Shown: positions 23,660 through 57,864 of the stretch, one piece after another | How positions within the stretch are numbered: the stretch's first letter is position 1 | How the letters are laid out: the number at the start of each line of letters is the position of its first letter | Assembly: GCA_973895155.1 (NCBI GenBank) | Contig: OZ316894.1 | Span: 14,213,680 to 14,277,679 of the forward strand | DNA length: 64,000 nucleotides | DNA from: Marsupella aquatica | Lineage: Eukaryota; Plantae; Marchantiophyta | Direction of reading: 5' to 3' | Position numbers and translations under genes: made by a program | Notes under the pieces: model-generated | Seen by the model: the letters and a program-made list of their open reading frames with translations, nothing else | Told to the model about the DNA's origin: nothing | The model's database searches: none

Positions 23660-24018
23660 CACTAGTAGAAACCGGGGCAATTTAGACCAAACCTTATAGG
23701 ACTAAGGCCACTAAGTCCTTTTTGGCAACCTTAAATGACTCGAAACCATTGCCACGGTTCACATGAACACTACAAAAGACTGTGAGTGCTTTTTGGTTTT
23801 GGATAAGACTATGAAAAGTACCCTTCTTTGTGAATGTATGAACACTCTAGCACATGATGGGTTGTAGGGTTTAGTTGTGGGCTTTAATTTGATAATGGGC
23901 ATATGGGGGGGGGGGGGGCACAATTCATTTGACGACCTCTTTACCAACATCCCGCTAACTTGAACACGGACAAACGGCGTAAATGTTGAAATTCCCTAAT
24001 TTTGAATATACTCCATAG

Positions 24019-24510
24019 TGGGTTTGGGGGGGTTTAGGGCTCAAGGGTGGGCCAGTTACATGCGAAGGGTGTGGGGGTTCACCACTAAAGGGGTTTAGGG
24101 GGGTTTATATGCCAAGGGTGGGCCGGTTAGGTCTCAAGGGGGTGGGGGTCAGTAAAGGGGGTTTAGGGTCAGAGAACACTCAATTGAAATAGTGACGCAG
24201 CGATTTAGGGTAAACGAACAGGGACCGTGGACCCTAACTTGTTTGCTGCCTTGGGAGGATTTGGAGAGCTGGAGGCAACATGCTTCATTGATCCTGAGCT
24301 TGCAAGCGGCGCTCTAAAACGGCCCGTGGCATTGCAAAAACAGTCTGGCCACAGTCGAGTTGTCAAGACATTTAGGGGATTTATATGTCAAGGTGTGGGG
24401 GTGGCTGAGTTTTCACTAAAGGGGGTTTAGGGGGGGTTTATATGTCAAGGGTGGAGGGTTGAGATGTCAAGGGTGGGGGGTTTAGGGTTAAGGGGATGGG
24501 GGGTTTAGGG
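24019..24510 (+). repeat. G-rich, telomere-like subterminal repeats of the CACTA
   Basis: Repeated GGGGTTTAGGG, CAAGGGTGG and CACTAAAGGGG units. Confidence 0.75.
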
Positions 24511-25604
24511 ACCATTGGATGGAGTCCATCGATCCCCACCATCAAAAAGTCGCATATTGGAAGTTTACTCAGCTGGGCTATACTTTGAGAGGGCCGAGTA
24601 GTCATGACTTAGCACTAGTTTTTTAGGGGCTAGACAAGGCTTGGAGTGTAATTAATTTAGACACTTGAAGTAGAGGGAATGGGGGCCTGGGGTTAACATG
24701 AAACCTGCATATTGATGGTCGAGATCACTCAAGGCAATCTCTTTTCATCCGGATGGCTGAGATCACTCTAGGGGCTGCCATGTCATAGTAAGGTTGACGC
24801 CAAACGGCTCTTTGCACCCTTTTCACCCTCGCGCCTTTCAGTCGTGTTTTACTTTTCTCACAAAGTATCGAGGCTCAACGTTGAATGTTGCGGTTAGTGT
24901 CTGCCACTCAGCGTTTAGGGCGAGAGGGTCAAGGGGTTTAGCAAGGTTGCGCTGCTGTTTTGCCTCAAGAGTGTGCAATCAAGGCTTCAATCAGGTCTCC
25001 AGGAGCTGCGGGAGCGCTATGCAAAGTGTTGCGGGAGGATGTGCAATGTGCTGCGGGAGTGCTGTGCAATGTGTTGTTGCAGGAGTGCTACTGCGGGAGT
25101 GCTGCACGGGAGTCTGAGCTCAGTGGGAGGGTTTAGGTTTGGCTGATCGATGTGCATTTACAATTGTGGATAGTAGTTTGCATTGGAGTTGCAAAGGAGC
25201 TCGCCAGAGTTGTGAAGGAGCAGGGTGTGGGAGTTGCGGGCTGCCATCGGCCCTCCTATTTTTCTTTTACTCCCACAGCGAGCTCCCGTATGAGCTCTTG
25301 TGTGAGCTTTGTTCAGCTGCGGTGGGTGCTGAGCTTATTTCCGTCGAGCTCAGTTGTGCTGTGCTGATTTTTGTCTAACAAAGCTCGGGGGAGGGTTGTC
25401 GGTTGGACGTTGGAGCTGCGCTTGTGATATTTTGGGGTTCGGGCAAAGGGCGGAGGGCGGAGGGCGAAGATCAAGCATTTTTGTTTTGCTAACGCTGCGT
25501 GGTGGAAACTGGACCTGCGAACTCCTTGTCTATGGTGTTGTGGAGCTGGGCGAGCTGCAACAAGGGACCAAGCCGGGCGACCTGTGAATTAAGGCCCATC
25601 GATC

Positions 25605-26105
25605 GCTGCTGAAGGTTTGATGTCCAGATTTCTTGCCTGTGAGTCCCCATGTTTGCAGTCTCTGTCCCAATCTCTTGCGTAGTGCTCGGCGTAGTGATTA
25701 CACTTACTGTGATTGACCACCTTGCATGATCTACATCCGTGGGCTAGACCCCAAGAAGTAGATTTCGGCGACTACTTGCGAAAGGGATTGAAGAGATTGG
25801 AGTGCTTGCTCTCTTTGTCCCTCCCCTTGAAATTGTGGGCCTTAAAAAGGTCACTTGGCTTATGTAGTTTTGCTCCCCTCCGCTATGTCAATGCGCGCAT
25901 GTCCGCTATGTCAATGCACATTTTTTCCCTCTTCTATGTCAGTCGCCGTTTGCCTATAATTGGATTGCTCATTTGATGTCCACTCGTCTGATGTAATGCT
26001 TCCCGTTGCCGCTGCTGAAGGGTTGATGTCCAGATTTCTTGCCAAACAAAAGTCCCCATGTTTGCAGTGTCTATCCCAGTCTCTTGCGCAGTGCTCGGCG
26101 TAGTG
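25605..26105. repeat. ~95-bp direct duplication inside the CACTA (25605-25696 and 26011-26105)
   Basis: GCTGCTGAAGG.TTGATGTCCAGATTTCTTGCC...AGTCCCCATGTTTGCAGT...AGTGCTCGGCGTAGTG occurs twice. Confidence 0.85.
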
Positions 26106-27819
26106 CCCATGATTCGATAGGGAACTGATTCATGAACTGTGACTACTTTTATGCTCTGCAATGTGAATATGTTGGCATTTGCTGCACTTGGTGTTGATAG
26201 TTTTTGTTAAAACTTCAATTTAAGTACGTGGGAGATAGACGGGAAGTCGGACGGGGAGGTAGAAGTGCACGGGAGACAGACGGGGAGACAGGAGGTAGCG
26301 AGCTATTGATTTGCGCCTTACATGACACCGCCCAACATTCACCTGCTACAAGGACTCATCTTGGTGCGCTTTGAGAATCTCCGTGCTGCAAGGTGAGACT
26401 CTTTCCTAGTCGTGAACTTATATATGCCCTCTCATAGTCTCGTTTAATATTGAGGAATGACTATATGCTTCCGTGACACGGCTCATCTGTCCATTTTTTA
26501 CTGTGCACGGCTCATCTGTCCATTTTTTATAGCATGATTGACGTCAGCTGTGGCTTAGTCCACCTTCTTGTAACAAAGCAGGCGGTGATTGGACCAGATC
26601 GTGTACTTGGAGCTGCCCCTATCGAGCTGAAGGAGCGTCGAGCACTCTAAGGCAAGAGTTTCTCCTGCATTGTTACCTGGTTACAAGGTTACTCTAAGGC
26701 AAGAGTTTCTCCTGCATTGACAACTTTCCCATGCCACCTTCAATCAGTTTTCCTTTGCACCTTGGCTTGATCATTTCAAAAAACCTGTCACATTGAGCAC
26801 GGAATCTATCGCCTAAGTTCAGCCTTTCAGCTTTTTTCCGGACTGTCACATAGCGAGTCGGTCGCGCTACCGGAAGTACTACCACTTTTACTATACGGTT
26901 CATCTCAGTGCCTTTTATGGAATGCTTTCTTGTTCTTCTACTCGGCATGGCATCATCCTGATTGCCCGTCGCTGTGACCAGCAACGGAAAGCGTAGACTC
27001 GCGTTTGGATTCAGAGTCTAATCCAGAGTGTAAGGCTCTGAGCAGACCGTAATAGGAAGCCTGCCTGATTCTCTAGCCGATCCGACAGAGAGCCATCCTT
27101 GCAGAACCTGTTTGAGTGTGTTCCAGTGTTCTAGTGTTCAGCTTTCGAGTGGGTTTTGTTATGATTTGATTTGGTGATTGTTTTGGAGTTGTAGCCGTGG
27201 TCAAACGCATGTCTATTAAAAACAAATTCATGGAGCTCAGGTTGCTGCTGTATATAAACCGCAACAGGATCCAGAACTGCCTGCAGTCCCAGCAAATCAT
27301 ACATGCTACAGTCACAGGATAGGAGTTCAAGAAGTCTTCACAGTTTCTCATTTTTGTAGAATCTGAGATGTTGCTGGCCCAGGAGATGAGTTTCCCTTAA
27401 GAGTCAGGGACGTCAGCAGTGTGGGCCATGTAATACAGTTGAGAATGATGGCAAGTATAATTTGTTAATGGGTCCAATGCCATGTTTGTGAGCTATTGAG
27501 TTGGATAGGAGAAAAAAACCAAAACATTGTCGCAACTGCTTCCAGAACAATCATTCATGGTTAGACTAAGCTCGGCTGAACACCCCTCGCTTGCATGGGG
27601 CGGACACAATGCGGAATAGGCTGTCATGGAGTTGTCGAATGGATCTTCAATTTTCATGATAAATGTCCCCGAGCGTTCGTCCTATGTGTAGATTTTATAG
27701 GGGATGATGGGCGAGGATCATCTTTCCCATCTTCCTGAAGCTTTGTCTGCTTTCTGCCACCTCAGTGGAGGTTCACTTGCACAACACGACAACCAGTGAG
27801 TTTTCTCTTTGCTGCAACC

Positions 27820-28734
27820 TGCAAGGTGAGACTTTCGATCTTTCTGGATGAAAAAACAGGATCCAAATATGATTTATGTACATGTCCATGGAGAACATGG
27901 TTTTATATACATGCTCTTTGTCTCAGGAACTTAGCATCAAATATGTACTATGCACCTTTCATGCTATGTGTATATTGTGACCTGTAGTTGGAACCAATTT
28001 AGTGAGTGGGAGCTGATAAGTGCAGGTTGGTTGCTGTGGGCAAGGCAAGTCGACCTCCTGCTCGCCTTGCTCATCAAAGGATGTGAACAGAGGACATCAC
28101 AACAAAAGCAACATTTATGGTGAGGACCCGCAACGCTGAACATGTGTGGCTTGCATGCAAGGCAAAGATGTTGCGCCTTGAGTATGTCAGACTGGGGATT
28201 CTTCCAGCCCAATCTGCATGGTACTTTGAGTACTCTCACGGTTTGCTTATGGCCATTATTTGCAATTTGCTGCTACTAATATGTCTCCGACTGAGCAGCA
28301 TACACCGGAAGTAAGCAATAGTGGAGGTTTAACTGCACATCAACACATCCAGTGAACTACCTCTCTGCTACTCACTGGAGGGTGAGACTTTCACTCTTTC
28401 TGGATATTGTAGTTTGTAAGCAAGTTGATTAGGAGTGTTTCATGCTATGTTTACATTGTGACCCCTAGCTGGAACCAATGGAATGACACAGTGAGTGGGA
28501 ACTGATAATTTAAGGTTGGTTGCTGTTGGTGAGGCAAGTACAGCTCCTGCTCACCTTGCTGATCGAAGGTGCTTATCAGAGGACGTGAACACACGACACT
28601 CCACAAAAGCAACACTTATGGTGAGGACCCGCAATGCTGAACATGTGCGGCTTGCACGCAAGGCAGAGATGTTGCGCCTTGAGTATGTCAGACTTGGGAT
28701 CCTTCCAGCCCAGTCTACATGGTACTTTGAGTAC
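27820..28734 (+). repeat. Tandem duplication of an intron-exon unit (donor GGTGAGACTTTC, acceptor CATGCTATGT...TAG, MVRTRNAEHV... exon)
   Basis: 27960-28233 and 28440-28734 are near-identical; both encode MVRTRNAEHVxLAxKAxMLRLEYVRLGILPAQSxWYFEY. Confidence 0.85.
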
Positions 28735-29067
28735 CCAGTTGTTGCCAGGAATAACTACAGCCGCCCTGTACCTGCTTCTCCACCCTTCCCAACATCCTTG
28801 GTATTTTTGTCTCTCGTACATGACCCGCCACAAATTAGGGCCCAAGGGTGTGTGCACAGTTGCCAGTATGACTGTCCTGCCTGTAGGGCTTCTGGCCTAG
28901 AGTTGGATGACCGTTCTCTTGGATGTCGGTTTTTTCATAGAGCACAATGTATCATCTGGAACCACTCGCCATCCTGCAGTGTGCCTGGCGATGTCACTTG
29001 TCCTGCCCTCCCAGACCCCACCACCGGTCACTTTGGTGTCTACACATGTTTGGATCACACGCTGTAG
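28618..29067 (+). CDS. CACTA cargo ORF, Cys/His-rich putative zinc-binding protein
   Basis: Open frame 28495-29067 (first ATG 28618; may be joined to upstream exons). C-terminal half reads CVHSCQYDCPAC...CRFFHRAQC...HSPSC...TC...TCLDH. Confidence 0.5.
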   Translation: MVRTRNAEHVRLARKAEMLRLEYVRLGILPAQSTWYFEYPVVARNNYSRPVPASPPFPTSLVFLSLVHDPPQIRAQGCVHSCQYDCPACRASGLELDDRSLGCRFFHRAQCIIWNHSPSCSVPGDVTCPALPDPTTGHFGVYTCLDHTL

Positions 29068-29736: not shown

Positions 29737-30417
29737 ATGGCACGCCCTAAAATCCGAGCCAAGAAGCGGGGGACAGAGGTGAGCAACACAGGTGTAGTTG
29801 GGCCAGATGGTAGTAACTTCTCCGCAAGTCAGATTTTCCAGAAGGCAGCTCATTGTTGTGCCATTTGTGACGATGGTGGTGGCTTAGCCATATGTGAGGG
29901 CCCTTGCATGAGGCATTTCCACCTCAACCCGAAGTCTGACCTTGCTGCAGAAAACAACTGTCCAGGGGTGGGCCTCCCGTCAGCACACCAGGGAGGCTGG
30001 ATGTGCACTGATTGTTTGGAGAAGCAGGCTAAGTGTGCACAGTGTGGGAAGTTGGGGTCTTATGAGGGCTCTGTTGATGCTCCACCACTTGTTAGGAAAT
30101 GCCCTGACAGATATTGTGTGAGGTTCTTTTGTTTTTCATGTTTGCCCGATCTTGCCACAGCTTGCCCACTTCATAAGTGCAAGGCATGTGGTCAGCACGA
30201 TGAAGATTTCTGGGTGGACATAGTCCACTGTGTTAGGTGTCCCACCATGTGGCACTTTCATTGTTTGAAGGAGCGTCAAGCAGAAGGCTATGCTTGTGAC
30301 AGACACATCTATCATCACTCTGCACATGGTGTTGATCGATGGATCTTCTATTGTCATCGCCATGCCATAGATCCTACTTTGCACACTCCCATGAGAGATC
30401 ACATTTCTTGGCTTTGA
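29737..30417 (+). CDS. CACTA cargo: stand-alone EDM2-type (ENHANCED DOWNY MILDEW 2) PHD-finger cluster, 226 aa
   Basis: Basic N-terminus (RPKIRAKKR), then CAICDDGGGLAICEGPCMRHFH, CTDC...CAQCGKLGS, CPLHKCKAC, CVRCPTMWHFHC and RWIFYCHRHAIDPTLHTPMRDHI. The order and motifs match the PHD region of plant EDM2 as I recall it (CAICDNGG..CCEG.C.RSFH; CPLHKC..C; CRRCP..YH..C; LIYC..HEID..L.TP.RDH). Confidence 0.85.
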   Translation: MARPKIRAKKRGTEVSNTGVVGPDGSNFSASQIFQKAAHCCAICDDGGGLAICEGPCMRHFHLNPKSDLAAENNCPGVGLPSAHQGGWMCTDCLEKQAKCAQCGKLGSYEGSVDAPPLVRKCPDRYCVRFFCFSCLPDLATACPLHKCKACGQHDEDFWVDIVHCVRCPTMWHFHCLKERQAEGYACDRHIYHHSAHGVDRWIFYCHRHAIDPTLHTPMRDHISWL

Positions 30418-31444
30418 ACCTGAATAATGTACATGCATAGTGCACCTGATGTGGATACCTTGGAGATTGCAGACATTCCAATTTTGAGAAGAAGGACCTC
30501 TGTAGGAGAGGATGCTTAGGCAACAAGTACCCTAAGTTCATTACTTGTTCCTGGGTACATGCCTTCAAAAACTCCCCTTAAGCCTTCTAGGAACTTTTTT
30601 AACTCTGCAATCATTTTGATCACGACTTACATGACACTGCTTAAATTAAATCAGGACTTCTCATTATGAGCATATAAGTTACAAGGCAGACAGAGAACTG
30701 ACAGTGGACTTGCGAAGAAGGGCGGAGGGACTTGTGCTCATCCATGAGCGTTTCGACCTTCCAGAAGGAGATTGAGAGGGGCAAAAAGCTTCTCGAGAGG
30801 GGTGGAATCGATACGAGGATGACCCCTGCTTCTGCACGAAGCTTTTTCTGCTCTCTCTCGCCATCGCTACGATCGGGATCCGCTTTAGAGCCGGTTCTGC
30901 TGTTTTAGGGTGGAATACTAGTCTGGATTGCGGGAGCACAATTGTGGAGATCCGGTCATGAGAGTTGGAGCCAGGGGTGGCGGATGAGCCGATGCGTTAG
31001 TCTAGCGGGAGCACCTTTCCCGCTGCCACTTTTGGAGGCGGGGATTAAAAGGTAGACACATTGGAACAGGGGTTCGCATCGATCTGGTGGGGTGCTACAG
31101 TGGGCGACTGAAACAAATGGTGTGGATTACGGCAACGGACCTTGGTGTCTGCAAGCTCGGATTGGACAGCGAGTGGCGGCACTCAGATTCCTAAAAGTGT
31201 TTGGAGCTGACATTGCCAAAGAGGATGGCGGAACATGCAGAGAAGAGTTAAGGCGGCACAAAGTGTGCCTGAGTGGTTCTATTCTGACGGGAGAATTATG
31301 GAATAGTTCGGGAAGGACATCTTGGTTAATGAGATTGGACCCAGTGGACTCGAGAGGAGCCTGGAGCCCTCTTCGATTACAAGGTAAGCACTGCCCCGAA
31401 CATCTTATTAACGCCGTCTGACTGTCATTGCATACATTAATTTA

Positions 31445-33610
31445 ATGTCGGGCGAAGGTGAAAAGGGATTGGACTACTACGGGCGCTCAGAAACCACATC
31501 TCGTGGAAGAAGCGATCGGAATGGACGTCTTTCTGAATCAAGGAACATCCGAGTGGCTACACCAATGGCTGTCCAGACTAGAACGGGGACGCTTCAGGGG
31601 GTGAGAGGGCGCGAGACCAATCTGGTTGGTTTGGCCTCTCAGAATAAAGGAAAACTCGGAGAGGAGGGAGTGGGGAGGTGCAACCAATTCTCGGCGCAAG
31701 ATGCGCGGAATGATGGGGACGGACCACGGCGGGAGAGAAAGGGAGGAGGCAATCCTGGCCTACAGGGAGAGAGTAGGGGGGCTCAGCCGGCTCACAACGG
31801 GAGATACAGGACGATCTGATGGACATGGAAGAGGATGAGAATGGCGGCGGCTCAGCTCGGGACAAGGTCCCAGCCTTGGATGGAGAGACACGACGTAGCC
31901 TGAGAGGTGCAGAGCTCAGGGGAGAGGGTCCTGGAATCTGTGGAATCTCAAATGGTACCCGGAATCCTGATACATGGGGCCGCAAAGGAGCTGAAGAGGA
32001 GGAAACATCGGAGGAATGTATCAGAATTCTGAGAGCTGTAGCACACCGCTCTAAGGGTGACCTTGACAAAAAGCTGTTTGCCACAGTTGAATGGAACATG
32101 ACGGAAGCAGCTATGAATGTGAGGCAATTATATAACTGTGCCTTGCTATGCTACTTCACAGACAGAACCCCATTGCTTCCAGCCTTCAGAGACTGGGTAG
32201 AAGACGAAATGACTAGCCAAGGGCGCTGGCCGGTGCTACAAGTCAAGTTTGTGGGGAAAATTTTTTACATGGTAATCTTTGAAGAACCTGATCATCGGGA
32301 TCTGGCACTGAATGGGGCGCCATGGTTTATGGAAAATAGATTTGTATACACCTTCCCATGGGATCCAACCTTTGACATAAAAAATGAGTCTTACACCAAA
32401 TTGCCAGTATGGATTGAGCTACCATTTAGAGCCTTGGAGCTGGAAGGATGCAGAAGGAAAATTGCAAGCGCGCTTGGCACCCTACTATACTACATTCAAG
32501 GAGACCAATTCAGTTCTTACCCACATGACCGTGCGTGCATACTATGGGACACTGACAGGGAGATACCGGCAAGTGTTCGAGTGAAAATTCAGAAGGATAT
32601 AGTAATTTGGCAACCGGTGACCTTCCGCAATATTCCTTACCACTGCTACAAATGCCATAAGAAAGGGCATCTAGCCCGCAGCTGTCGAGAAGGAGATGAA
32701 GGGCAGAGGCCGACGAGTGTGCTGGAAATACCTGATGAAAAAGACGACGAACGACACTCGGAGGCTGACCCAGAAGAGATACAAAAGGCCCAAGAGAATG
32801 CTATGGTCCGGGTTAAATTCAGGGAGAACCAAGAGCGGCAGGCGAACACGATCTGGAAAAACTCAGTTGAGGAGGAAATTGCCCATGTGGAGCTGATCAT
32901 TGCGACAGATGTTAGAGAACCGGACAAAGGAACTCCAACTAACCCACAACGGCCGAATGTGGGTGCTATTGGGATGGAATTGCTGGAGCCCACTCGTGGA
33001 CCCTTGGACGCCATGGTGAGATGGGAACCGACTAGGACTAAGGGGAATTCGCGAGACTTCCCACCTGGGAGTGGACTGGCCCGGGATCCTGGAGGTAACA
33101 CAGACCGCAGAGGCTCTGTTCTAAATGCCAGTGCACCAAGCTTTGGGCCGGAATTCAGCACGAAGGCCAGAACAGACACACTCGGGCTTCCAGGATCGCT
33201 CTTAGAGGTAGAAGCCGAAGGGAATTTCTCGTACCATGGGGACACCGATGCAGAGATGTCAGAATATGAAGCTTACATATCGAATAGCAAACTCAAAGCA
33301 CGAACCAGGAAACAAGAATTGAGAACCCCCCCCAACTGAAGATAAAGATAAGCCGAAGGGTGAAGCAAAAAAACAACGTTCGCTGTACTTCTCATGAGGA
33401 TCCATGTCTGATGCAGGTGCGGGCGAAAGCTCAACAAGGACAAACAGATTGCTCAGCCCTGAAACGAGGAGTCCGAGAAGTGAACAAAGAGGCGCAGCAC
33501 AAACTAAGATGAGAGACGACTACTCCCTGATAGGGGGACTGACTGAGCAGCAAACGGGGAGCGGCTCTCAGGGCTGGATGCTATCCCCTGGAGGACGGAA
33601 TCGTATCTAG
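31445..33610 (+). pseudogene. LINE-B ORF1 (DUF4283-type domain plus zinc knuckle); main open segment 31819-33339
   Basis: APWFMENRFVYTFPWDPTF...LPVWIELP...CYKCHKKGHLARSC. TGA at 33337-33339 falls where LINE-A continues (RTPPTERSEK), and there is a probable frameshift near 31.8 kb. Confidence 0.85.
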
Positions 33611-33670
33611 GGTGACGGTGTGCTGACCAAGTGCACCACTCGACTTGGGGAGCAGCGGGGGGGGGAGGGG

Positions 33671-36600
33671 ATGGAGAACATAATGCGGATTGCCACATGG
33701 AACGTCTGTGGGCTGTGTGAGACAAACCGCAAACATGTCGTCAAAAACTGGGTACAGGCACTGCGATTTCCGCTGGGATGCCTAGCTCTACAAGAAGTGA
33801 AGACGGATCAATTCTGTTTGGACATGGCTCTGAGAACAATTCTCTCAAACTATCAACACTTCTCATCGGCACCAGAGGAAGGCAGGGGAGGAACGGCACT
33901 TCTGGTCCACCCGTCTTTGAAGGTGGTAGCATCAGGCAAACTGGACCTTGGCAGAGCTGTGTGGATAATCATTGAGAACGAAGGAGGCAATTATGGAGTG
34001 GCATCTATCTATGCACCAAACTCGGCTGACTTAAGGGCTTTGCTATGGAACGAGCTTAAGGATGAGCTTCCGCAGGTAAACTGGATCATCTGTGGCGACT
34101 TCAACATGACAGAAAGAAGAGCGGACTCAACCGGGAGATCACCTCTGATCGGCGGAAGAGAAGCGGAATTCTGGCGCTTCTTAAAAACGCGCTTTGACCT
34201 GGTAGATGCGTGGGAGATCACCGGGGGCGCTACGGGTGCCCAATTCACATGGAGAAGGATGAGAAGGGGATTAATGGTACAATCCCGATTAGATAGATTC
34301 TACATTAGCGAGAAGGGATGGTGGTTAGAGGAGAGAGTAGAGCTGGTGCATGAAGGAGGATCAGCGTTATCAGACCATGACCCGGTGATACTGAAAGGGA
34401 GGTTCAGAGATGCAGGTCAGAAGGTGGAGCGAGGTAAGGTGAGACTATTCATGGCCAATCCAGCGCTTCTAAGCAACAAGGAGGACCTGACGCTTCTAGA
34501 AGGAGCCTAGAGGGAAGGAAGGAGGGAATTTGCAAACCCTGTGCTGCGATTTTCAAAAGCGTGCTCCAATTTTAGGCAAAAATACATGGAGTTACAAGCA
34601 AGACCAAGGCTGGCAGAGGTTGAGATGGAGTTTCTTAGAGCGAGAATGAGAGCACTGAAAGCATCCATTCTGGAGGAACACACAGAGGATGAAATCAAGG
34701 AATACACGGAAACGGAAGACACACTGCATGCAACCGAGTTGGAAGTGGCTAATAAGGGACGGAGACTTGCAAGGATTAAATGGCTGGGAGAAGGAGACGA
34801 ATCAACAAAGTTCTTCTATGCGATAGTAAAGGCTAAACGCGCCCGAGAAACCATGAACCTGATTCTCAAAGAGGATGGGACGGAGATAACAGAGGCGGCA
34901 AGCATTGTGCTTGAAGTGGAGAAAATGTGTCAAGCACTTTATGCAGCGCAGGAACCCTCACAAAGGGAGACACAAGAACGACGGCAAGAGAGGAGACGTC
35001 TACTGCAACACACAAAATTTGCGCTTACAGCGGCAGAGAGAATGAAATTGGAAGCTCTCCCGACAACTAAAGAGGTGAAGGAAGTGCTTTGGATGCTACC
35101 AGGAGACAAATCGCCTGGCCCAGACGGCTTAATGGCAGAAGTACTGCGCGCATGCTGGGAGTTTCTGGGACAGGACTTGGTGGAAATGATACAAGAATTC
35201 TGGATGACAGGAGAGATTGATAGTGCGTTAAAAGAAGGGATAATAAAGCTCATTTCGAAGAAGCCTGATAAGAGATCACTGAAGGACTGGCGTCCCCTTA
35301 CAATGTTGAACACAACGTACAAAGTCATTGCTAAGATCCTGGCATTGCGGTTACAAGAAATCATGAACAAGATAATCAGCCCCCAACAGATCGGATTTAT
35401 ACAGGGGCGCCACATTCTGGAAAACATCTCACTGGCCTGGCTCGCATGTGACTGGATACAGCACAAGAAGACGGAGGCACTTTTCTTGAAGTTGGATTTC
35501 GAAAAGGCCTTTGACAGGGTGAATCACGAATACATATGGGACACAATGCACTTACTGGGAATAAGTGGCCACTTTATCACACTGGTACGGGCTCTGTTGG
35601 TTGGATCTTTCTCGAAGGCAATGGTCAATGGTTTTGCGACGGGTATGATTGAGCTTAAGAGGGGGGTGAGACAGGGCTGCCCCTTGTCGCCCCTACTTTT
35701 TGTCATCTCGACACAACCGCTGATGGACTTCTTAGCTGCGGAGATGGAGGCTGGGAGACTTAGTGGACTGTCAATCACGGACACACTCACAATATGCTAC
35801 AGATTATTCGCAGATGATGTTGGAATGTTCATTCCTGCCACGGAGGAAGCTTTCACCCAGGCACAAACTGCACTTGCATGTTATGAAATGGGTTCTGGAG
35901 CAAAGCTGAACCTACGAAAATCTGTGGTGATTCCCTTGGCAATTGAGGTCATCCTGGATTGGCTGCTGTACTCTGGCTGTCAAGTGAGTGCAATGGGGGA
36001 GGTTCAGAAATATTTGGGCGCTCCCTTGGGGGCCGGGCTGAAGACTGAGCAACTGCACAAATTCTGCCTAGATAAAATCAGCTCACGACTGTCATCCTGG
36101 ACAAATAAGCTCCTCTCTTTCACAGGTCGAACCTTATTGGTCAAACACGTGCTCCAGGCCATCCCAATCTACCATGTGATGCACCTCAAGGCTTCAGCGG
36201 GTCTGGCCAAGAAACTCATTGCCCTCAGTAGAGATTTTCTGTGGGGATATAATCCTGCAGGTGGGAAGAAAATTCCGCTGGTGGCATGGGACAAGATGAC
36301 ACTTCCAAAAATAGAGGGCGGCCTGGGATTCAAGGACTTCAGAAGCCACTCCAATGCATTATTATCACAATGGTTCACTAAGGCCCTAGAGTATCCAGAC
36401 AGGGAATGGTCGAAGATGCTGGCAGCCAACTTATCTTTAATGGGATGGTTGAATTACAAGGTGATCAGAAGAAACAATTACACGTTCAAGGATAGGCTTC
36501 TGCTCTGTACTCCTAGGGCAGGCGGTGGTCTCAGGTATACAAGTGGTCTATGGAAGGCTTGGGAGGAGCTGCGTGCCCATCTGGCTTTTTGTCCTGGGAG

Positions 36601-37597: not shown

Positions 37598-38173
37598 GGG
37601 GTCTGCTTTTTGGGGGGCTGCTGTGGGAAGGGCATGGGTGCTCTCTTGATCGGTGTTATTTCCCTTCTTTGAGGGGGGGCTCTCCCTGGGGCTTTGATGC
37701 TCTCTTTTGTGCTTTTGGGCTCTCTTTGTGGCTCGCTAGTGTGCTGTTGCTGTCCCTGTATTAAGGGCTGTTGTTCCCCCTATCCGTGGGGTCTTTCACG
37801 GTATTAAAATTTATAAAAAAAACCATTCCAAGGAAGTTACAAGGCTATTTAATTTGCGAGAATTCCCTTAAAGTGTACCAACATTTTCTATTCTCATTGA
37901 ATGTCTGCCCATTTACAACATCTGTATGTGGCATCACAAAACAATTGCACTTGTCACCTTCAATATTGTCAAGGCACATATTCAAACTATGAGGTGCATG
38001 CTTGCAGGTGTCTAGTACGTTTGTCCCAATATTTCTCCCGTTTGGAATCGGAGCAGAGACTCACCAGACGACTGGACTGGACCAAGTTATAAACGCAGCA
38101 TTTTAAGGGCCCTCCGATTATCAGGTGAACGCATTATCTTCCGGTCTGTAGTGATTAGGTGGCACGTGTGTAC

Positions 38174-39022
38174 ATGGCCTCTAGGAAACGTACAAAGGTT
38201 GACCACCCGCCTCTGTTGGCTGGAATCAAAGCCATTTTGATTCCTGGCCACTATGGGTTCACCCAAGTGAGTTGGCCAATCGTACAAAAACAATTCTCAG
38301 AGTTCCATGGGACTGAAGTCAAGGACATCACTCCACAGACTACACATGTTGTTGCGGGGACATGGCTGGATGTGATGAACAACTGGTCATGGTCCTTCAT
38401 TGATTCTGCCATTACCAACCAAGGTCTAAAAGTAGTTGAAGTCTCTTGGCTGACCGATTCTGTTAAACATAGGTGTGTACAGAGTACTGAGCAATATGAG
38501 TTGTGGGAGAGTGAGGAGGCCACTGCAGAGGCTTTGGCTGAAAAGGAAGCCTATGAAGCAGCGGCAGAGAAACCCAACTTTGCTTTTGTCCAATATGGAC
38601 CTGTTGTCAACATAGGACACCATCCTATGCGTGCAGATGCTATATTGAATGAGCATGGCAAGGAGAGAAATACCATTATGAAGGGGTTCAGTGTGGTATT
38701 TGCAGAAGAAGGAATTGGGGAGACTAAGTGCAGATTGTACAAGTCTATAGTTGTTGAGCTAGGTGGGACAGTGGAGAAGAGTCTAACAGAAACCTCCACT
38801 CATGTTGTAGGTCTGTCATACATGAAAATATGCAGAAAATTCTTTAAGACAATAGTGCGTGATTTTGTCATGAACAACAATCTTTGGGTGCTTTCCCCTG
38901 ATTGGCTTCTGGAATCAGCAGCTAGAGGGAAGCGACAGAATGCTTGGGACTTTGATATTTTTGAGGCCTGGCCCTCCAAGATTCAGCGGAGATGTATGCT
39001 TAGCAAAGGTGGGAGAGAGTGA
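38174..39022 (+). CDS. CACTA cargo: tandem BRCT-domain protein (BRCT resembling that of plant DNA polymerase lambda), ~282 aa
   Basis: NLS-like MASRKRTK. Two repeats carry BRCT hallmarks: LLAGIKAILI...TTHVVA...VVEVSWLTDSVKHRCVQSTEQYEL, and IMKGFSVVFAEEGIG...VELGGTVEKSLTETSTHVVG...VLSPDWLLESAARGKRQNAWDFDI. They are joined by an E/A-rich linker. Confidence 0.82.
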   Translation: MASRKRTKVDHPPLLAGIKAILIPGHYGFTQVSWPIVQKQFSEFHGTEVKDITPQTTHVVAGTWLDVMNNWSWSFIDSAITNQGLKVVEVSWLTDSVKHRCVQSTEQYELWESEEATAEALAEKEAYEAAAEKPNFAFVQYGPVVNIGHHPMRADAILNEHGKERNTIMKGFSVVFAEEGIGETKCRLYKSIVVELGGTVEKSLTETSTHVVGLSYMKICRKFFKTIVRDFVMNNNLWVLSPDWLLESAARGKRQNAWDFDIFEAWPSKIQRRCMLSKGGRE

Positions 39023-39198: not shown

Positions 39199-39732
39199 AT
39201 GCTGCCTCTTCCAGACCGTCAGGCCCTATGTAGGGTCCTCCTACGGGTTGCATCGTGCATGGCTACTGCTTGGGCTTACTTGTATGGATTGGTAACCAGA
39301 CAGAGTGTAGCTCCATCTGAGATAATGCCTGCAGACCTTGGATGTGTTGTGAATGTTGTGGTGAATGAGGATGCACAGTCGGAAGAGGACATTTACTTTT
39401 CAGCAGATGAGTTAGACAAGCACGATGCTGTAGGTTGTTCCTTGTTGCCTGATTTGGCAGATGATATAGTTCTTACACATGTCTGGCCGAGGGTTCTTGT
39501 GGTGTCTGGCGCACAAGATATCTGCAAATATAGACTAATTAGTACCCAGTGGAGGGACTTGGTAGCAACATGTGCACCATGGAGGGCACTGCTGCCACTG
39601 CTTGTAGGCACGGATCGAAGACCACCATGGCATGAGCAGGGTTTAGACCTTGATGACTTAATGTACATGCCTGAGTACCTCAGGGCTGAGTGGCATCGAC
39701 AACAGGATTGGTATCCATATTTGATGTGGTAG
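39199..39732 (+). CDS. CACTA cargo: small F-box-like protein
   Basis: SLLPDLADDIVLTHVWPRV...ICKYRLISTQWRDLV matches the F-box pattern LP.LP.D/E.....L.RL......R.VS..W..L. It has a hydrophobic N-terminal segment and an acidic linker, and no recognisable substrate-binding repeats. Confidence 0.65.
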   Translation: MLPLPDRQALCRVLLRVASCMATAWAYLYGLVTRQSVAPSEIMPADLGCVVNVVVNEDAQSEEDIYFSADELDKHDAVGCSLLPDLADDIVLTHVWPRVLVVSGAQDICKYRLISTQWRDLVATCAPWRALLPLLVGTDRRPPWHEQGLDLDDLMYMPEYLRAEWHRQQDWYPYLMW

Positions 39733-40058: not shown

Positions 40059-43000
40059 ATGGCTCCAAGGTTGCCTCTTCACAACCCATTTAGGATTAGG
40101 CATCATGATTCTAAATTGTGGATGCATGAACAAGCCCGGGCCGCCCAAGGTAGGAGTAGGAGGATGAGATGCCCATGCACACAGTGCCAAGGACTCAAGT
40201 CGTTGAGTTTGAACACTGTGCACCTTCACCTGCTGCGGCATGAAAGGCACCCTCGGTGGAGGGTTTGGAATGTACCAGCAGAAGAAGACTCCTCTGATGA
40301 AGAGTGGAGAGCTGACTTTGTGGATTCTAATACAGCTAGGCGTAGAGACTACGTAGAGCAGGACATAGACTGTGCAAAGGATGGTCCTGGGGTCCAACAT
40401 GAGAACATGGATGACCAAGATGGAGATGGAGAGGCAGTCACTGAGGACGATGGGATGGATGTCCCAAGAATGGTTCAAGAGATTTTTGAAGACCTTGATG
40501 CTTTTTACGACACAGTGGAATCAGAAGAGGACAATGAACCGCAGCCACACATTGGCGACGGCCAAGCTGAACCTGACTTTGACATTGGGGAAGGTGCAGC
40601 AGAGAGGGAGTGGGTGTTTGGGGGCCCAAAACACATCAAAGAAGCTTGCATTCCTATCTACGAGGGGTCGAACTGCTCCAAGCTGGGTTTTGTCGTGTTG
40701 TTGTTGAACATCTGTGGCAATCACAATGTTCCCAATATATTTGTGACAGAGTTGTTGACCTTCCTGCGCCGAAATGTGTTACCAGATGGTAATTCAATTC
40801 CAAAAAATATGTACGAGGCTAGGAAATTGATGTCTAACCTTGGGCTGAACTATGTGTCTATTGACGCATGCCCTGATGGGTGTGTTCTCTTTCGCAAAGA
40901 GCATGCAGATAAATTGACATGCCCTCATTGTGGTAAGCACAGGTACAAGAATGTAGGGAAATGTACACACCCTGCCAAGGTTCTTCGTCATTTTCCTCTC
41001 ATTCCTAGACTACAACGTCTGTTTAGATGCCCTGCCATTTCCAAGCTGATGACATGGACTCCTGATAACAAGAGCAGTGATGGCCTGCAGCGTCACATTG
41101 GAGATTCCAACCATTGGAAATTTGTTGATGAGAGGTGGCCACAGTTTGCTGCAGAGAAGCGGAACTTTAGATTTGGTCTATCACTGGATGGAGTAAACCC
41201 ATTTGGAGACAAAAACAACCGTTATTCATGTTGGCCGGTTACGCTGCTAAATTACAACCTTCCCCCATGGATGACTACAAAGAGGTTTTTTGTCATGATG
41301 GTGCTGTTAATCCCTGGACCAGCTTCTGTGACCGAGCAATTCATAGATATCATGTTGGCTCCAGCAGTGGAAGAGTGGAAGACTTTGTGGATAGAAGGGG
41401 TGTTAACCCATGATGTTCTGAAGGGGCTTCTTCGACCCAGCCCCTTTAGATTGCATGCAATTTGTTTGCTGGATATAGCAGATTACCCAGGCCATGGCAT
41501 CATATCTGGACGAGTGACAAAGGGCTATGTGGGGTGCACACCATGTGGGAAAAATGTGACAAGTGAGTGGTCGCATGCCCTGCACAGTATGAAATTTCAG
41601 GGGCATAGAAGGTATCTGCCTGTTGATCATCCTTATAGGCACACACGGTCTCAAATTGCACACTTCAACAACAAAACAGAGCTTCGTGGCCCACCACAGA
41701 GGGTCACCAGAGAGCAAGTCCTGAGGTGGGCAGCCAGGAAGGCTGATTGGGACAAGAGAAGTGCCACTGATCGAGAACCTGAGGATCCAGTGGTGAAACA
41801 CGGTGTGAAAAGACAGACCTTGATGGACTTGGAGTTGGAGTACTGGAGGGTAATGTACTTAGCCTCCAGCCCCTGTATGATTGCAATTTTAGATTGGAGC
41901 AATGGTGGATTGATGTTGGTTACAATCCTCCTATGTGGTTAATTAGTGTTTCTGTTGTTGAATTCTTTGCTTTGTGGAGTGCAGGAATTCGAGCCCAGCA
42001 AACACAATGTGGACGTCATGCACATTGAGAAAAATATTTGTGAGAGCTTGCTGAAGTTCTTGTCGGGTGAGAAAGATACAGGAGCAGTTCGAGCTGATAT
42101 GCAACAGAAGGGGATTCGCCCTCACCTTTGGTTGAAGCCCCATGCAAGCAATCCCAATGTACTTCTCAAGTTCCAAGCTCCCTATGTGTGCACACAGGAT
42201 GAATGGAAGACATTCTTGTATAGATTGAGCTGTCTGAAAGTGCCCTCTGGCTATGCTGGTGCCTTCAAGAAGCATATTACAAAGAATAAACTTGGCAGTA
42301 TGAAAACACATGACTACCATGTGTTGATGCAGCACATTCTGCCCCTATGCCTCAGAGGTCTCATGCAGAAACCAGTCCGTAATGTCATTCTTCGACTGTG
42401 CAATGTATTTTGCCGTATATGTGTGAAAGTGTGGGATCCCCAAGGATTGGAGCAGTTGAAGCAGGATGCTGCTTATGTCCTCTATGACTTGGAGATATAC
42501 TTCCCCCTTGCTTTCTTTGATGTTATGACTCATCTCCTAATCCATGTGGTAGAAGAGCTAGGGCAGTATGGGCCAGTCAGTACCAGATGGATGTACCCTA
42601 TGGAGCGATACATGAAGTTGTTGAAAGGTCATGTGAGAACATACTACAGGCCAGAGGCTTCCATGGCATTGGGGTACATTAAGGATGAGACGTTGGGATT
42701 CCTAACAGAGTACATGGCTGGGTCTGGTGAAGCTATGACAAGAGTTTGGAAATCTGGTGAAGATGGAGTGAGTGGCGAGGTTGTTGAAGGTGTGGGACGT
42801 GCTGTTCAGCTGCCTGTTGTGATTCGAGACAAGGCTCATTCATATGTGCTGGCAAACACAGAGCCTATGCAACCATGGTGGAGGTGAGTGATTGAATTGA
42901 CTTGCCTTTGTTGTGATGCTTCTTGTCTGTTCCAAGGGTGATCTTAGGTTGTCATGTGTTGTTTAGACCTAACTATGCCTGTACCTCATATTGCAGGGAA

Positions 43001-43756
43001 TATGATATGCAAAAAGCTGCACACTCTGGGCAGCAGGATCCCTTCCCACAGTTCGAGCAGTGGATTCGGGTGACAATTCGAGAGCATAGTAGACATCACC
43101 CAGATATGGAGAAGGATTTGTATCTTCTATCTGTGCCACCACGATTGTCTATTCTGACCTACAAACGGATGAGAGCTTATGGAAGTCATTATCGAGTGAG
43201 GGATGAGCAGGGTGACCATTGTGTATCATATGATTGTGGTTTGATTTCTATGTTTGAGCAGAGAACCTCTGAAGAACAGAGGGGGTGGATGAAGATGGGT
43301 TACGTGGGGGAGTTGACCGACATTTGGGTGTTGAATTATGGTAACACAAGTGTCCCAGTGATATTGATGAAGGGATCATGGGTGAAATCAGAGTGGCAAA
43401 GACCAAGGGCCACCATGAAGCGTGATCATGATGGGTTCTTGTTGGCCAATTTTAGGTCCAGAGTACCAAAATGGTCTGAGCCTTTTGTTTTCCCTAGCCA
43501 AGTTGAACAGGCTTTCTTTGCAGATGTGGAGGAGTCACATGGCTGGAGGGTGGTATGCCATAGCCAAGCACGGAACAGGCGGATGGATGGAAGTAAAGTA
43601 GAGTTCAGTTTGGATGACCATGCTGCATTCGAGCATCCTAGTCATGAGACTGTACTTCCAACTCGGGCAGGGACTGACTACATCCCCTTAACATTGAGAG
43701 AGACATATGATGAACCTGGGCAAATGGAATATGATGAGGTTGATGATTTGCAATAG
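40059..43756 (+). CDS. CACTA transposase TnpD/Tnp2 (transposase-associated Zn domain, Transposase_21, DUF4218, DUF4216); 3 exons, ~1149 aa, no stops
   Basis: Exons 40059-41849, 41985-42883, 42997-43756, with GT-AG introns in phase. Motifs CPCTQC...HLHL, IDACPDGCVLF, LRHFPLIPRLQRLF, GLSLDGVNPF, YNLPPW, DYPG, HNVDVMHIEKN, MKTHDYH, FFDVMTHLLIH, RWMYPMER, EPFVFPSQVEQAFF. Confidence 0.93.
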
Positions 43757-43933
43757 GCAACAGCTGGCGATTGGCAAGTATGAGGTTGAGGATGACTACC
43801 TGCACAGAGTCACATAACGGAAATTGCTACCTGGAATGATGTTTAGGATAGTTGGATATGCATGAAATTGATTGATACTTTGAATTTAGTGTGCTGATTC
43901 TCCCTGTTTGGTTGTGGGTGCTGTGCAGAAGCT

Positions 43934-46900
43934 ATGGGGGAAGAGGGTGATGACATGGAGACAGACATGGGGCTTGGAGAGTGGGGTGAAGAGGAAAGAT
44001 TGGATATGGATGGAGACCCAGATGCAGGGGGCTCACAGAAAAATGCACCTGTGCAAGATGCACAGGGCCCTCATCAAGTCCCAGGTAGGTGGGCAGCTAG
44101 AGAGAAATCACATAATCCATACCCTAGAAGGAGCCAGAGTTATTGGCAAGGGACGCCTGATAATTATGATGATGACTATGATGGAGCAGAAGATGGATGG
44201 GATGAATATGAACACCCAGAGCGTGGTAGAGACGGGTACAGAGGGCAATGGAAAGGTGAGGAGGATGATTGGACAAGTAAGTGCCTTGTGCTAGTGATTT
44301 TGTGATGGTAGTAGAGATTTAGCTCAATATGCACTTATCTGATGTGTAGCTAGGGCAAAGAGTTTATCTTACAGGTCCATGAGTGTGGCATGTACCTGTT
44401 GGTATGCAGACTCTGATTGGGACAATCACGAAAACAACAAAGGCCATCCACGTTCAGATAGGAGGCAATCATTCACAGGCGGGAGAAACGCCCCTAATTC
44501 ATCAAGACAAAGCAATAGGACAGGTGGTCCAGAACCATCTATGCGCCAAGGGAGAGGTAACTTGGTCATTGCAGAATTGCTCTGAAGTCCACTGTATATT
44601 TGGCAGCGGGATTTATGATTCATACTTACCTAATGTAAGTGACTGTAAATGGATCCTGTAAATGTGCAAGGACTCCAGGGAGGTTTGGACAATGCAATCC
44701 AGGCCGTGGGGGGAGATCAGGCCATGGAGGGACCCCAGGCCGTGGGGGGACACCAGGCCCTGGAGGGACACCTAGTAGCGCTTCAGGGAGTACCAAGGCA
44801 GGAGACAGTAACAAATTTGGTAAAGTAGAAGTGAATTCCGAAGGTTGGATAACTCCCACATGTGATGGTAAGAACCGTTGGCATTCTGACCTAAGAGGAG
44901 AAGTATTGCGTTGGTTAGATTTGAGCATTACAGAGTTTAGGAGTCAGAACAAAGCTGATTGGGCTACTATCTGCAAGGACATTCTTGAACGGTGGGAGTA
45001 TGTTGGTAATGATGGTAAGGGCCCAGTTGAAGATTGCATATCAGATTATGCAATGAGGATTTTGAAACAAGAGAGGCATAGGTTGAAAAGGATGTGGATA
45101 GACAATGGTTCTAACAGGAGAATGCCACCACCCCCATCATTGGAACTGGATCAATGGACACGGTTAATCAAAGGGTTCATGTCGGAGGCTGGACAGAGCA
45201 AGAGTGAACTGATGTCAAATGCTCGAGGCAAAGTGAAACACCTTTCACAGGCTGGGAGAGGAAGTTATGCTCCAATGAAAGAACAATTGGTAAGGCAGTG
45301 ACATGCCTGATAGTAAGCCTCAAACTTATCATCTTGCTACCATTATTACATTTTCATTGACAATCAACACTTGGTTTCATTCATATGTATGTTGATGTGG
45401 ACTGCAGAAGAAATTGACAGGTGAAGAACCATCAGCACAAGAAGTGAGAGAGGAGTTCATGAAACAAAGGAGTGAGGTGACAAGTGTAACTTCCAAACAG
45501 GTGATTATGTTGTAATTTTGTATGTTCTGTGACTATTTGGCCTTGAGCATCAGAAAGAAATGTAGTAGGAAGTAAGCAACCAGTTCTTGGGGACAGTTAT
45601 CTGAGATATGTAAGCTGTGTTATGACAGGGAACTGTTACAACTCTCACAGAGATGTGTGAACGGTTGAAGTCATTAGAGTGTGGACTCCCTCGAGTGGAA
45701 AGTAAATTGGCTGATCGTTTGGATATTGTGGAGGCATCTGTAGCGAACCTTCTTGCATCAGTGGAATCTAATTTCAAGCTTGTGATTGAAAAATTGGGTG
45801 GTTCCCAACCAAACAATGAGGGCAACATTGTACAAAGTGTGCCCTTGTTAACAAAAAAGGGAATTGGAAAATCTGACACAGGTATGGAAATGACACCGGC
45901 CCATTGTTCATTGTGTCCTATGTTCAAATGTCAGAAGTAAGTTTTCATGAATTGAGTGAATGGTTTGAATGCAGGAAGAGTGGAGGCAGAGAAGGACCCT
46001 GTAATCAGTAAGCAGAAGGGCAAGAAGGTTGCTGAGACAGGTAACCTGCTATGATCCAGTACATTACATTTGAAAAGTGCATGGAGTTTTGTGAAGCTTA
46101 AGCCGGTTGGAGGTAATCTTTTCTGTAAGAACTGGTTGGATGAACTGGGATCTGAAGTGACATCATGATTGATGTATCAGGTGATTCAAAGAGCAATAAT
46201 GAAGAAGATGTGCCCAGTGCCTCAGTGACCATAGCCAAGGAGGTATCAGGTAAGCTGATGCTTTAAATTCCTCTATATGAATGTTGAGCAACAATTCAGT
46301 GGTTAATAGATTCAACCTGAATATTGTGGTGTGTTTATTGATCAACAGAAGCAGACATGGAGCATATGGCAATGGCAAAGAAGGGGAAGAAGGCTGTTCA
46401 TAATGGTAAGGAGATAGTGACAACTTTGTGGTTGGTGACATGTACATTTAGCACATGTGATGAGTGATTGACTTATGTTGGACATGACACTGAATTGTAG
46501 TTGATGCAGAGTTGACAGACTCTCAACCAAGTGGGAGTAGGGTGAAGCGACGTCGAAACTTGGGAGCAACATTGGATGCAAGTAAGATTGTAGATGCTTC
46601 AATTGAAGCAAGTACAATGTTGGCAGATACTGAGATGATGTCGCAGGGAAATCCTACTACACAATCAGAAGTGTCAAATATGGATGCAGATTCTTTGAAG
46701 AAGAGTGTAGCCAATTCTCGATCACCAGCACAAAACACTCGTGCCAAAGTCATGACTCGCAACCAAGGTATGAATAATGTCATGTATAAGCCACCCAGGA
46801 AAGCCAAGAAAAACAGCCAGGGTAAGGTGGAGGTGATAGCCACAGCAGAGCCAGTCCATAATCTTCTATCATGGGAGGATGACTCGCAGGTATGTGTGGG

Positions 46901-47105
46901 TATAGGCATTTTGCGACCGGATCATGCAAAATTCCATGGCAAAGTGGTCCCGGATGACCATGTAGTAGTGTTGTTGACTACAGTGATTGTATCTGATTGT
47001 AATTTGCCATTTCCGAATAGAGACGATGATCCACCTCAGGAAATAATTGCAGATGCAGTAGGATCTCTTGTGCTCTGGCCATCAGAGTGTGTTAGTCTGC
47101 AGTGA
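43934..47105 (+). CDS. CACTA TnpA-like (ORF2) multi-exon gene
   Basis: Probable exons include 43934-44276, 44410-44556, 44671-45289, 45408-45500, 45630-~45881, several short exons, and ~46510-47105. It has an acidic N-terminus, GRGGTP repeats, a Transposase_24-like QWTRLIKGFMSEAGQSKSELMSNARGKVKHLSQAGRGSYA, and a C-terminal FHGKVVPDDHVVV...LPFP...IADAVGSLVLWP typical of En/Spm TnpA-like proteins. Internal exon limits are approximate. Confidence 0.78.
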
Positions 47106-47629
47106 CTGAATGCAAGTGTAGATAGCATCATGTGAATTGTGTCACATTTTGACATTGCCTTGGAAAGATCCAAGAAATATCTGTACCAATTTTTCCATTT
47201 GGTAAAGAGGATGAAGGAGACGTTGTGTGTGACATTGATATTTCTGAATTCTGTATGTATGAAACAAGTGATTGATGTCAAACTATGGCTCTATGGTGAT
47301 TGTCTATAATACTTGAATCTATTTTATCATTTCAGTATTAGTGTGTATGGTATAGAGGAATACTTTGTGACCTTCTTTGTAGTCTGTTTGAATCTGTGAA
47401 TTCATATTAGTGTACATGGTATAGAAGATGGCTTTCTGAAACTATGTATTCTAATGTTAACATGATGAATGGTGAACTTATAGAGTGAGTTCATTCCAAG
47501 TACACAATAAAACATGAATGCAATATATTATTTGTGCACAAGAGTGGGTTCATTCCAAGTAGTATAGTGGGGTCTTCATCACTCATATCCAGTTGACATG
47601 AAAGACTTATACATACCCCACAAAGTATA

Positions 47630-47900
47630 TTTAAAGACTACCCTCCATAACCTTTTTAGTCGTTCCCAACGACTCATCATCGCAGCCCATAAAAGACTGA
47701 AAACGACTCACCAAAGCTACCCACACAAAGACTAAAATAGACTGAAAATCCAGTCTATTAAACGACTTATAAACCAGTTCGATAAAGGACTCAGTTGATT
47801 ATAGTAACAAAACATACGACTCGCAGTCCTATAAAGGACTAGAGTCCTTCCCAGTCGTTTCCAAGTCCTATACGGTATTGAATAGTCGTTTAATGGGGTC
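47630..47900. repeat. Right subterminal repeats of the CACTA (AAAGACT/AACGACT motifs in both orientations)
   Basis: TTAAAGACTA, AGTCGTTCCCAACGACTC, AAAAGACTGAAAACGACTC, AAAGACTAAAATAGACTG, AGTCTATTAAACGACT. Similar GACT motifs lie at 23695-23815. Confidence 0.75.
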
Positions 47901-48023
47901 TAAATACCCCCCGGTTTCTACTAGTGTCTCTGGCTGGTCTCCAAGTGGACGCAATAGGCTCTAAAACCTTCATTTTGGGGGACCAGGGACCCTGCTAATG
48001 GACTGCACAAAATTAGCAGGAAA

Positions 48024-57859: not shown

Positions 57860-57864
57860 ATGGT

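Follow-up and report, generated by a model that had tools for sequence, protein, structure and literature searches.

To our knowledge, the factors known to counteract silencing in plant transposons (VANC, TnpA and some transposases) act by binding DNA motifs. Here we describe a CACTA transposon of the liverwort Marsupella aquatica that carries four additional small genes, among them one for a stand-alone EDM2-type PHD block, and that probably maintains them on its own lineage as accessory genes. The element occupies positions 23660-47926 of the 64,000-nucleotide stretch that was analyzed (contig OZ316894.1, positions 14,213,680 to 14,277,679, forward strand; hereafter the window) and measures ~24 kb, or ~17.1 kb once a nested long interspersed nuclear element (LINE) is subtracted. 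It resembles CACTA/En-Spm elements such as maize Spm and Arabidopsis Spm1/Spm3 in its CACTA termini, 3-bp target-site duplication (TSD), TnpD domains, predicted downstream TnpA-like gene and subterminal motifs, and is unlike them in that four further conserved genes lie upstream of TnpD.

Arabidopsis Spm TnpA demethylates the element ends and activates the element, while H3K9 methylation stays in place (bioRxiv 10.64898/2026.08.24.746577). In the Mutator-like VANDAL elements, VANC is likely derived from a host chromatin protein, MAIN-like (PMC13547354), binds motifs located in non-coding tandem repeat DNA (PMC5735166), and VANDAL/VANC may bear a captured ULP1 domain (Kaonashi; PMC13317346). 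Like these, the element described here is a DNA transposon that bears accessory genes, of which some apparently stem from host chromatin proteins; it belongs to another superfamily and would, if the role proposed below is right, work in the manner of VANDAL elements, VANC itself being a binder of DNA motifs. Pfam scans of the four cargo genes found no match to a VANC-linked family. CACTA-captured genes and Pack-CACTA elements of Arabidopsis, soybean and wheat also hold host-related coding sequence within CACTA ends (PMC13317346, PMC4290129), and in wheat 3B 13% of 145 genes captured by CACTAs show transcription and purifying selection (PMC4290129). Such cargo consists mostly of recent fragments or pseudogenes, whereas the cargo here is whole, has diverged deeply from its donor type (about 31% identity) and is accompanied by an intact-looking transposase.

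EDM2 binds H3K9me2 and promotes full-length transcripts through heterochromatin (PMC7529245), and shifts transposon silencing either way depending on the locus (PMC3632883). One of the cargo genes, ORF2, aligns with the whole PHD block and following tail of EDM2 and EDM2-like proteins, which are H3K9me2 readers with an NSD-type PHD cassette; it is unlike them in lacking the N-terminal RFD-like and methyltransferase-like domains, in having a new start and stop, and in a 21-residue deletion within PHD2. Literature searches, in which coverage of subscription journals and Repbase Reports was thin, found no CACTA element with EDM2-type PHD, BRCT or F-box genes. PHD, BRCT and F-box have zero occurrences in the main text of the bioRxiv report cited above, which treats 962 Repbase Spm proteins, and zero in the main text of the survey PMC13547354; the supplements of both, and Repbase entries, could contain them. 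The element likely represents a CACTA lineage that maintains a cassette of several accessory genes, for which these searches gave no precedent.

Structure of the element and its gene set

The ends, genes and nested insertion of the element are as follows (ORF, open reading frame; aa, amino acids).

23657 to 23659, no strand: left TSD (TCT), from end analysis
23660 to 23677, plus strand: left terminal inverted repeat (TIR), 18 bp, perfect, starting CACTA, from end analysis
28618 to 29067, plus strand: ORF1, 149 aa, unnamed family with an invariant C-x-H-x5-C-x2-C-R, from homologue alignment
29737 to 30417, plus strand: ORF2, 226 aa, stand-alone EDM2-type PHD block, from Pfam, alignment and PDB match
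30676 to 37845, plus strand: nested LINE retrotransposon (30688-37833) with its 12-bp target duplication, between cargo ORF2 and ORF3
38174 to 39022, plus strand: ORF3, 282 aa, two BRCT repeats and a long acidic linker, from Pfam and repeat alignment
39199 to 39732, plus strand: ORF4, 177 aa, F-box-like segment below threshold and a conserved C-terminal tail, from Pfam and alignment
40059 to 43756, plus strand: TnpD transposase, 1149 aa, from Pfam and a splice model
43934 to 47105, plus strand: TnpA-like gene in several predicted exons, from a sub-threshold Transposase_24 match and its position
47909 to 47926, minus strand: right TIR, 18 bp, a perfect inverted copy of the left end
47927 to 47929, no strand: right TSD (TCT), from end analysis

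The two termini are inverted at 18/18 bases with TCT on both sides, confirming the perfect CACTA TIRs and TCT duplication reported in an earlier sequence-only reading of this DNA, and are the sole inverted pair in the window when 12-mers starting CACT[AG] are compared. With CACT(A/G) TIRs, a 3-bp TSD, a TnpD with D-D-E and subterminal repeats, the element is a genuine member of the CACTA superfamily. TnpD has Pfam matches to Transposase_21 (expectation value (E) 1.3e-59), DUF4218 (E 1.2e-24) and DUF4216 (E 9e-6), and its predicted exons (40059-41849, 41985-42883 and 42997-43756) join at GT-AG sites into a stop-free model. Within this model lie motifs with two Asp and the Glu, which we take to be those of the D-D-E triad. 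The sequence-only reading had called TnpD open, which is true of the 1149 aa obtained after splicing and not of a single ORF, there being three predicted exons. Its TnpA-like gene retains the support of downstream position and of stop-free GT-AG splice models, of which 64 are possible; the Transposase_24 match (E 0.028, 15 bits vs a cut-off of 28.7) falls below the Pfam threshold.

Upstream of TnpD, ORF1-4 (149, 226, 282 and 177 aa) each run from ATG to stop on the plus strand with zero internal stops, at exactly the coordinates given by the sequence-only reading. Their coding parts are intronless, and gaps of 176 bp and 326 bp separate ORF3 from ORF4 and ORF4 from TnpD. The description of an intact same-strand array stands as regards the four stop-free ORFs and needs amending as regards their continuity, the array being interrupted by a nested LINE that had gone unmentioned. 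This LINE is 7.1 kb long and bounded by a perfect 12-bp target duplication; its first ORF has DUF4283, and its second encodes an endonuclease and a reverse transcriptase with two in-frame TAG stops (2 stops in 1307 codons). It is a later passenger, outside the cassette.

The openness of the cargo was set against chance by simulating the surrounding 9.2 kb 1000 times with a Markov model and counting ATG ORFs of at least 149 aa. Four such ORFs arose in 0/1000 simulations, two in 1 and one in 95. ORF1 is therefore not beyond chance by length alone and is accepted as a gene because of its homologues. No fifth cargo gene came to light, since neither 51 further frames of at least 45 aa nor 3 longer ones had a credible Pfam match, and no recognizable broken gene fragments were found among the 51. 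These counts bear on the alternative that the ORFs are chance openings or recent non-functional cargo awaiting decay. The perfect TIRs and TSD do suggest a young insertion, and one 149-aa ORF arose in 95/1000 simulations. Even so, no simulation yielded four such ORFs, ORF1-4 and TnpD hold 0 stops in about 1980 codons against the 2/1307 of the nested LINE, and the families described below keep starts, ends and metal ligands at 28-81% identity. We regard this alternative as very improbable and largely refuted already.

Cargo families and their conservation

Stand-alone relatives of similar length were recovered for 4/4 ORFs (8, 5, 1 and 3 clusters for ORF1-4, at 28-81% identity), and in each of the four families the closer relatives agree in start position. 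ORF1-4 are, from these alignments, genes that have a start and stop of their own, neither debris nor cut-out exons. The searches for ORF2, ORF3 and ORF4 covered proteins of 0.55-1.75x query length, so that fused forms lay outside their scope. Of the 17 clusters, 16 come from Logan and 1 from JGI; 0/17 come from NCBI or UniRef, as is expected because annotation masks repeat-borne genes. Relatives at 51-61% identity are present in all four families, a shared tier that would be compatible with a single sister family in which the four ORFs occur together. Constraint was assessed by mutating each ORF neutrally to the observed identity, with 200 runs for each of the 17 relatives. Stop-free runs numbered 0-11/200 over all 17 comparisons. 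By this measure, ORF2 and ORF3 show constraint beyond neutral simulation, with a weaker signal in ORF1 and ORF4.

The PHD matches of ORF2 lie below the Pfam cut-offs. Its EDM2-type PHD identity, as proposed from the sequence alone, is nevertheless borne out when it is aligned with an EDM2-type protein and with NSD2, the PHD cassette of the latter being the best PDB match (E 1.2e-10). Against L001, a full-length EDM2-type protein on a metagenome contig, the whole PHD block aligns at 31% identity, the tail after the last finger included, and the atypical triple PHD block that serves as a test of the EDM2 family is present in ORF2. L001 carries a DNMT1-RFD domain, whereas ORF2 and 5/5 of its relatives end at the PHD block. 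These relatives, 5 proteins among 96 candidates, are 217-245 aa long and 38-81% identical to ORF2; all five have the MAR start (at the first Met in 4, at an internal Met in 1), and 4/5 have the DHISW[LI] end. Relative to EDM2-type proteins, PHD2 of all six has the 21-residue deletion and a ligand changed from H to C, and they form one side of a 100/100 branch opposite three EDM2-type rows in a tree of 9 rows. Cys and Trp residues are retained at 27/27 positions in relatives of 75-81% identity and at 21-24/27 in those of 36-53%, a level reached by 0/200 neutral runs in all five comparisons. ORF2 is best described, on its alignments, as an EDM2 PHD block turned into a protein of ~220 aa.

A Lys stands two residues after MAR in 4/6 members of the ORF2 family, the remaining N-terminus being variable. 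We take this MAR-plus-Lys start to resemble that of histone H3; the N-terminus may possibly be a histone mimic, or simply a basic localization signal.

ORF3 matches PF00533 (E 2.3e-13) on two stretches, which confirms the tandem BRCT assignment. The two repeats align gap-free with 16/69 positions identical, and their equal length register suggests an internal duplication. Among 736 candidates, 1 cluster of relatives was found (294 aa, 61% identity), and substitutions between it and ORF3 are more conservative than in 200/200 neutral runs. Matches to PDB sequences are weak throughout (LIG4, E 0.0071; BRCA1, 0.035; TdT, 0.3). The second BRCT may resemble the BRCT at the N-terminus of plant DNA polymerase lambda.

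For ORF4, the F-box of the sequence-only reading survives as an F-box-like segment that lies under the Pfam cut-off of 20.5 bits in 4/4 family members: ORF4 itself scores E 0.098 (13.1 bits) and the best of its three relatives E 0.0011 (19.3 bits). The best PDB F-box match is weak (E 0.69), and the structure model, with a predicted local distance difference test score (pLDDT) of 40.5, is unusable. Relatives number 3 among 68 candidates, at 51-55% identity, and conservation in the family is highest in the C-terminal 45 residues.

With ORF1 an as yet unnamed family of Cys/His proteins emerges that has no structural match, and the Cys/His character previously ascribed to ORF1 is reflected in the C-x-H-x5-C-x2-C-R motif, invariant across its relatives. 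The protein is predicted to bind zinc. Ten matches were found in 1.84 billion representatives and 8 were kept (144-200 aa, 30-56% identity). P0016 and P0018, long tandem-repeat proteins matching merely 23-26 residues, were dropped as relatives. ORF1 had no match in Pfam, PDB sequences or PDB folds. Its structure model (pLDDT 69; predicted template modeling score, 0.67) found nothing at E <=0.001 among PDB or viral folds, and against 48,161 chains its best Z of 4.6 equals background, so that a new fold is neither shown nor excluded.

Probable maintenance on the transposon lineage and possible roles

Base composition and codon usage set the cargo beside TnpD. The observed/expected (o/e) ratio of CpG is 0.23-0.42 in ORF1-4, 0.32 in TnpD and 0.38 in the TnpA pieces, against 0.74 in a neighboring FIP1-like host gene. 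Pooled codon usage of the ORFs is closer to TnpD than to the LINE or a nearby copia element in 1000/1000 bootstraps, and closer to TnpD than to the host gene in 936/1000, a figure that is not decisive; the composition contrast as a whole depends on one host gene. The TnpD-like CpG loss of ORF1-4 fits a long residence within the element, which indirectly favors maintenance there. Together with conserved families for 4/4 ORFs and the constraint signals, it supports the earlier proposal that the cargo is maintained rather than decayed. That proposal had also held that near-identity to host genes, introns included, would point to recent passive capture. Introns and stops are absent from 4/4 ORFs; as to identity, the comparison reaches as far as ORF2, which is about 31% identical to one EDM2-type protein, not the host's own.

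Several observations weigh against maintenance on the element and against the roles proposed below. The neutral test is biased toward constraint, as databases hold open ORFs only and the searches favor Cys/Trp matches. The conservative-change test gave no signal for ORF2 with its relative P0003 (128/200 neutral runs) or for ORF1 with P0013 (182/200), and Cys/Trp retention in ORF4 was unremarkable (15-52/200). The ORF2 tree, for its part, contains no EDM2 of the host's own lineage and has two long branches. All 17 homologue clusters lie on contigs of 0.9-2.9 kb, without visible genomic context; those of P0006, P0009 and P0010 measure 2.2-2.9 kb. No second cassette turned up when metagenome and viral contigs were scanned; among viral contigs there were no relatives of ORF3 or TnpD, and in metagenome contigs 0/150 pattern matches to the ORF4 family were confirmed. 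The metagenome scan for the ORF2 family returned 9 loci with host-type PHD, none near a transposase: the full-length L001, the short or partial EDM2-like L002-L008, and an unrelated multi-PHD protein, L009. The EDM2-type protein has an acidic stretch ahead of PHD1 that ORF2 has lost, and ORF2 may for this reason differ in histone specificity. The F-box part of the kit idea is weak.

The short EDM2-like proteins L002, L004 and L005, from other plants' contigs, are PHD-only and have a basic N-terminus. L002 and L004 group with full-length EDM2 and apart from ORF2, and reduction to the PHD block seems to have taken place on more than one occasion. Since other plants' contigs hold such proteins, a truncated form is not in itself a sign of transposon origin, a further point against the reading that we prefer.

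One alternative is that the four ORFs are small lineage-specific host genes, selected at host loci or for the host, that were captured singly in the manner of Pack-CACTA elements and are passively present here. Capture by CACTA elements is common, as in wheat 3B (PMC4290129), homologue contigs of ~1 kb could be host mRNAs, and PHD-only EDM2-like proteins do exist in other plants. Yet the four genes are unrelated, and capture would have had to bring in each of them complete and without introns, on one strand and at close spacing; the 51 further frames showed no recognizable broken fragments. The CpG and codon pattern is TnpD-like and unlike that of the neighboring host gene, and 0/17 clusters are in annotated databases. 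We consider passive capture rather unlikely.

Maintenance on the lineage together with a counter-silencing or host-modulating role for ORF2 is a proposition to which we give even chances. The broader idea of an anti-silencing or host-modulation kit is plausible from the domain names on which it rests. In its fullest form it would be a dedicated four-gene host-manipulation cassette, comprising an EDM2-derived heterochromatin reader with an H3-tail-like N-terminus, an adapter for end joining, a protein acting on SCF as adapter or decoy, and a zinc protein that belongs to a new family; this we put forward as tentative and somewhat doubtful. Under the reading to which we give even chances, TnpA would switch the element on from the CpG-rich 5' end, as in Arabidopsis Spm. 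ORF2, stripped of the other domains of EDM2, would occupy methylated H3 tails on the element and, as a decoy or adapter, would blunt silencing and allow full transcription of the downstream genes. At excision or insertion breaks, the BRCT repeats of ORF3 would engage end-joining proteins. ORF4 would engage the SCF ubiquitin-ligase machinery, and ORF1 would contribute a predicted zinc-binding protein. For comparison, plant DNA polymerase lambda uses a BRCT domain to contact LIG4 and XRCC4 and has been linked to excision-site repair (PMC4444747).

The CpG-retaining 5' region of the element (detailed below) and its CpG-poor genes fit the Spm TnpA picture. At the same time, the strong CpG loss over all genes implies that the element lineage has been methylated, and given such CpG-depleted genes any counter-silencing would be at best partial. 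The same depletion indicates that silencing marks stayed on the genes, which is compatible with the cargo being kept by the transposon for transposition itself, the PHD protein steering insertion into heterochromatin and the BRCT protein finishing the joints. Chromodomains steer insertion into heterochromatin for some retrotransposons. The conservation and composition data are equally compatible with this explanation, and the present copy did insert into a LINE within a repeat-rich stretch. However, a single insertion site in a repeat-rich genome carries little weight, and the PHD block is a separate protein, without fusion to the transposase. A role confined to transposition appears unlikely to us.

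Should the host-directed role of the maintained genes be correct, the element would represent a second anti-silencing strategy, at the level of histones and proteins, through a reduced version of the host's H3K9me2 reader with repair and ubiquitin modules. It would include the first transposon-encoded histone-mark reader against silencing in plants, independent of VANC and TnpA, and would point to DNA transposons bearing virus-like accessory kits. The cargo genes are small and intronless and are easy to clone and assay, which makes the idea directly testable.

The 5' region and genomic surroundings

Between the left end and ORF1, the following features were recorded.

23695 to 23725, no strand: subterminal AGGACT-containing motifs in both orientations, common to both ends, from motif search
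24019 to 24520, plus strand: G-rich short repeats with TTTAGGG / TCAAGGG units, from repeat inspection
24660 to 27160, no strand: CpG-retaining 5' region, CpG o/e 0.62-0.79 vs 0.12-0.46 across the genes
27764 to 28314, plus strand: shortened copy, in tandem, of the start of the ORF1 gene, covering the first 39 codons, from sequence comparison

The AGGACT-containing motif has 2 copies at the left end (23698, 23714) and 5 at the right (47786-47864), and these are short and few. The G-rich repeat stretch is possibly a protein-binding array, and the CpG-retaining region is likely the control region of the element. The truncated duplicate differs from ORF1 by 4 synonymous and 4 non-synonymous changes and has the same predicted intron in the 5' untranslated region. 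Upstream of ORF1, the same 15-mer resembling a splice donor is present in three copies (26386-26400, 27819-27833 and 28375-28389), and 25604-25696 has a duplicate copy at 26010-26105; the 5' part of the element may be a series of repeated promoter or leader modules. Candidate splice acceptors are situated directly ahead of the ORF2 and TnpD starts. On the minus strand, 26694-26945 holds an ATG ORF of 83 codons with a basic segment at its start and no Pfam match.

The CACTA insertion splits an older LINE (21800-23656 and 47930-51900) between its ORF1 and ORF2, and the two flanks align collinearly to a related LINE, the nested one, at 65-72% DNA identity. The host gene that served as the CpG control lies on the minus strand at about 7200-15400 of the window. 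What we take to be a Fip1-type motif is found in it near 13130-13230; the three other exon pieces that were scanned had no Pfam match. Downstream of the element, a Copia-type retrotransposon at 51988-57859 has 197-bp long terminal repeats that are 100% identical, an open frame of 1575 codons and a CpG o/e of 0.79; it inserted very recently and has lost little CpG. A PIF/Harbinger-type remnant lies at about 19000-20500 (Plant_tran, E 2.4e-25 at 19973-20482), and 57841-59064 is presumably a second, judging from its protein type.

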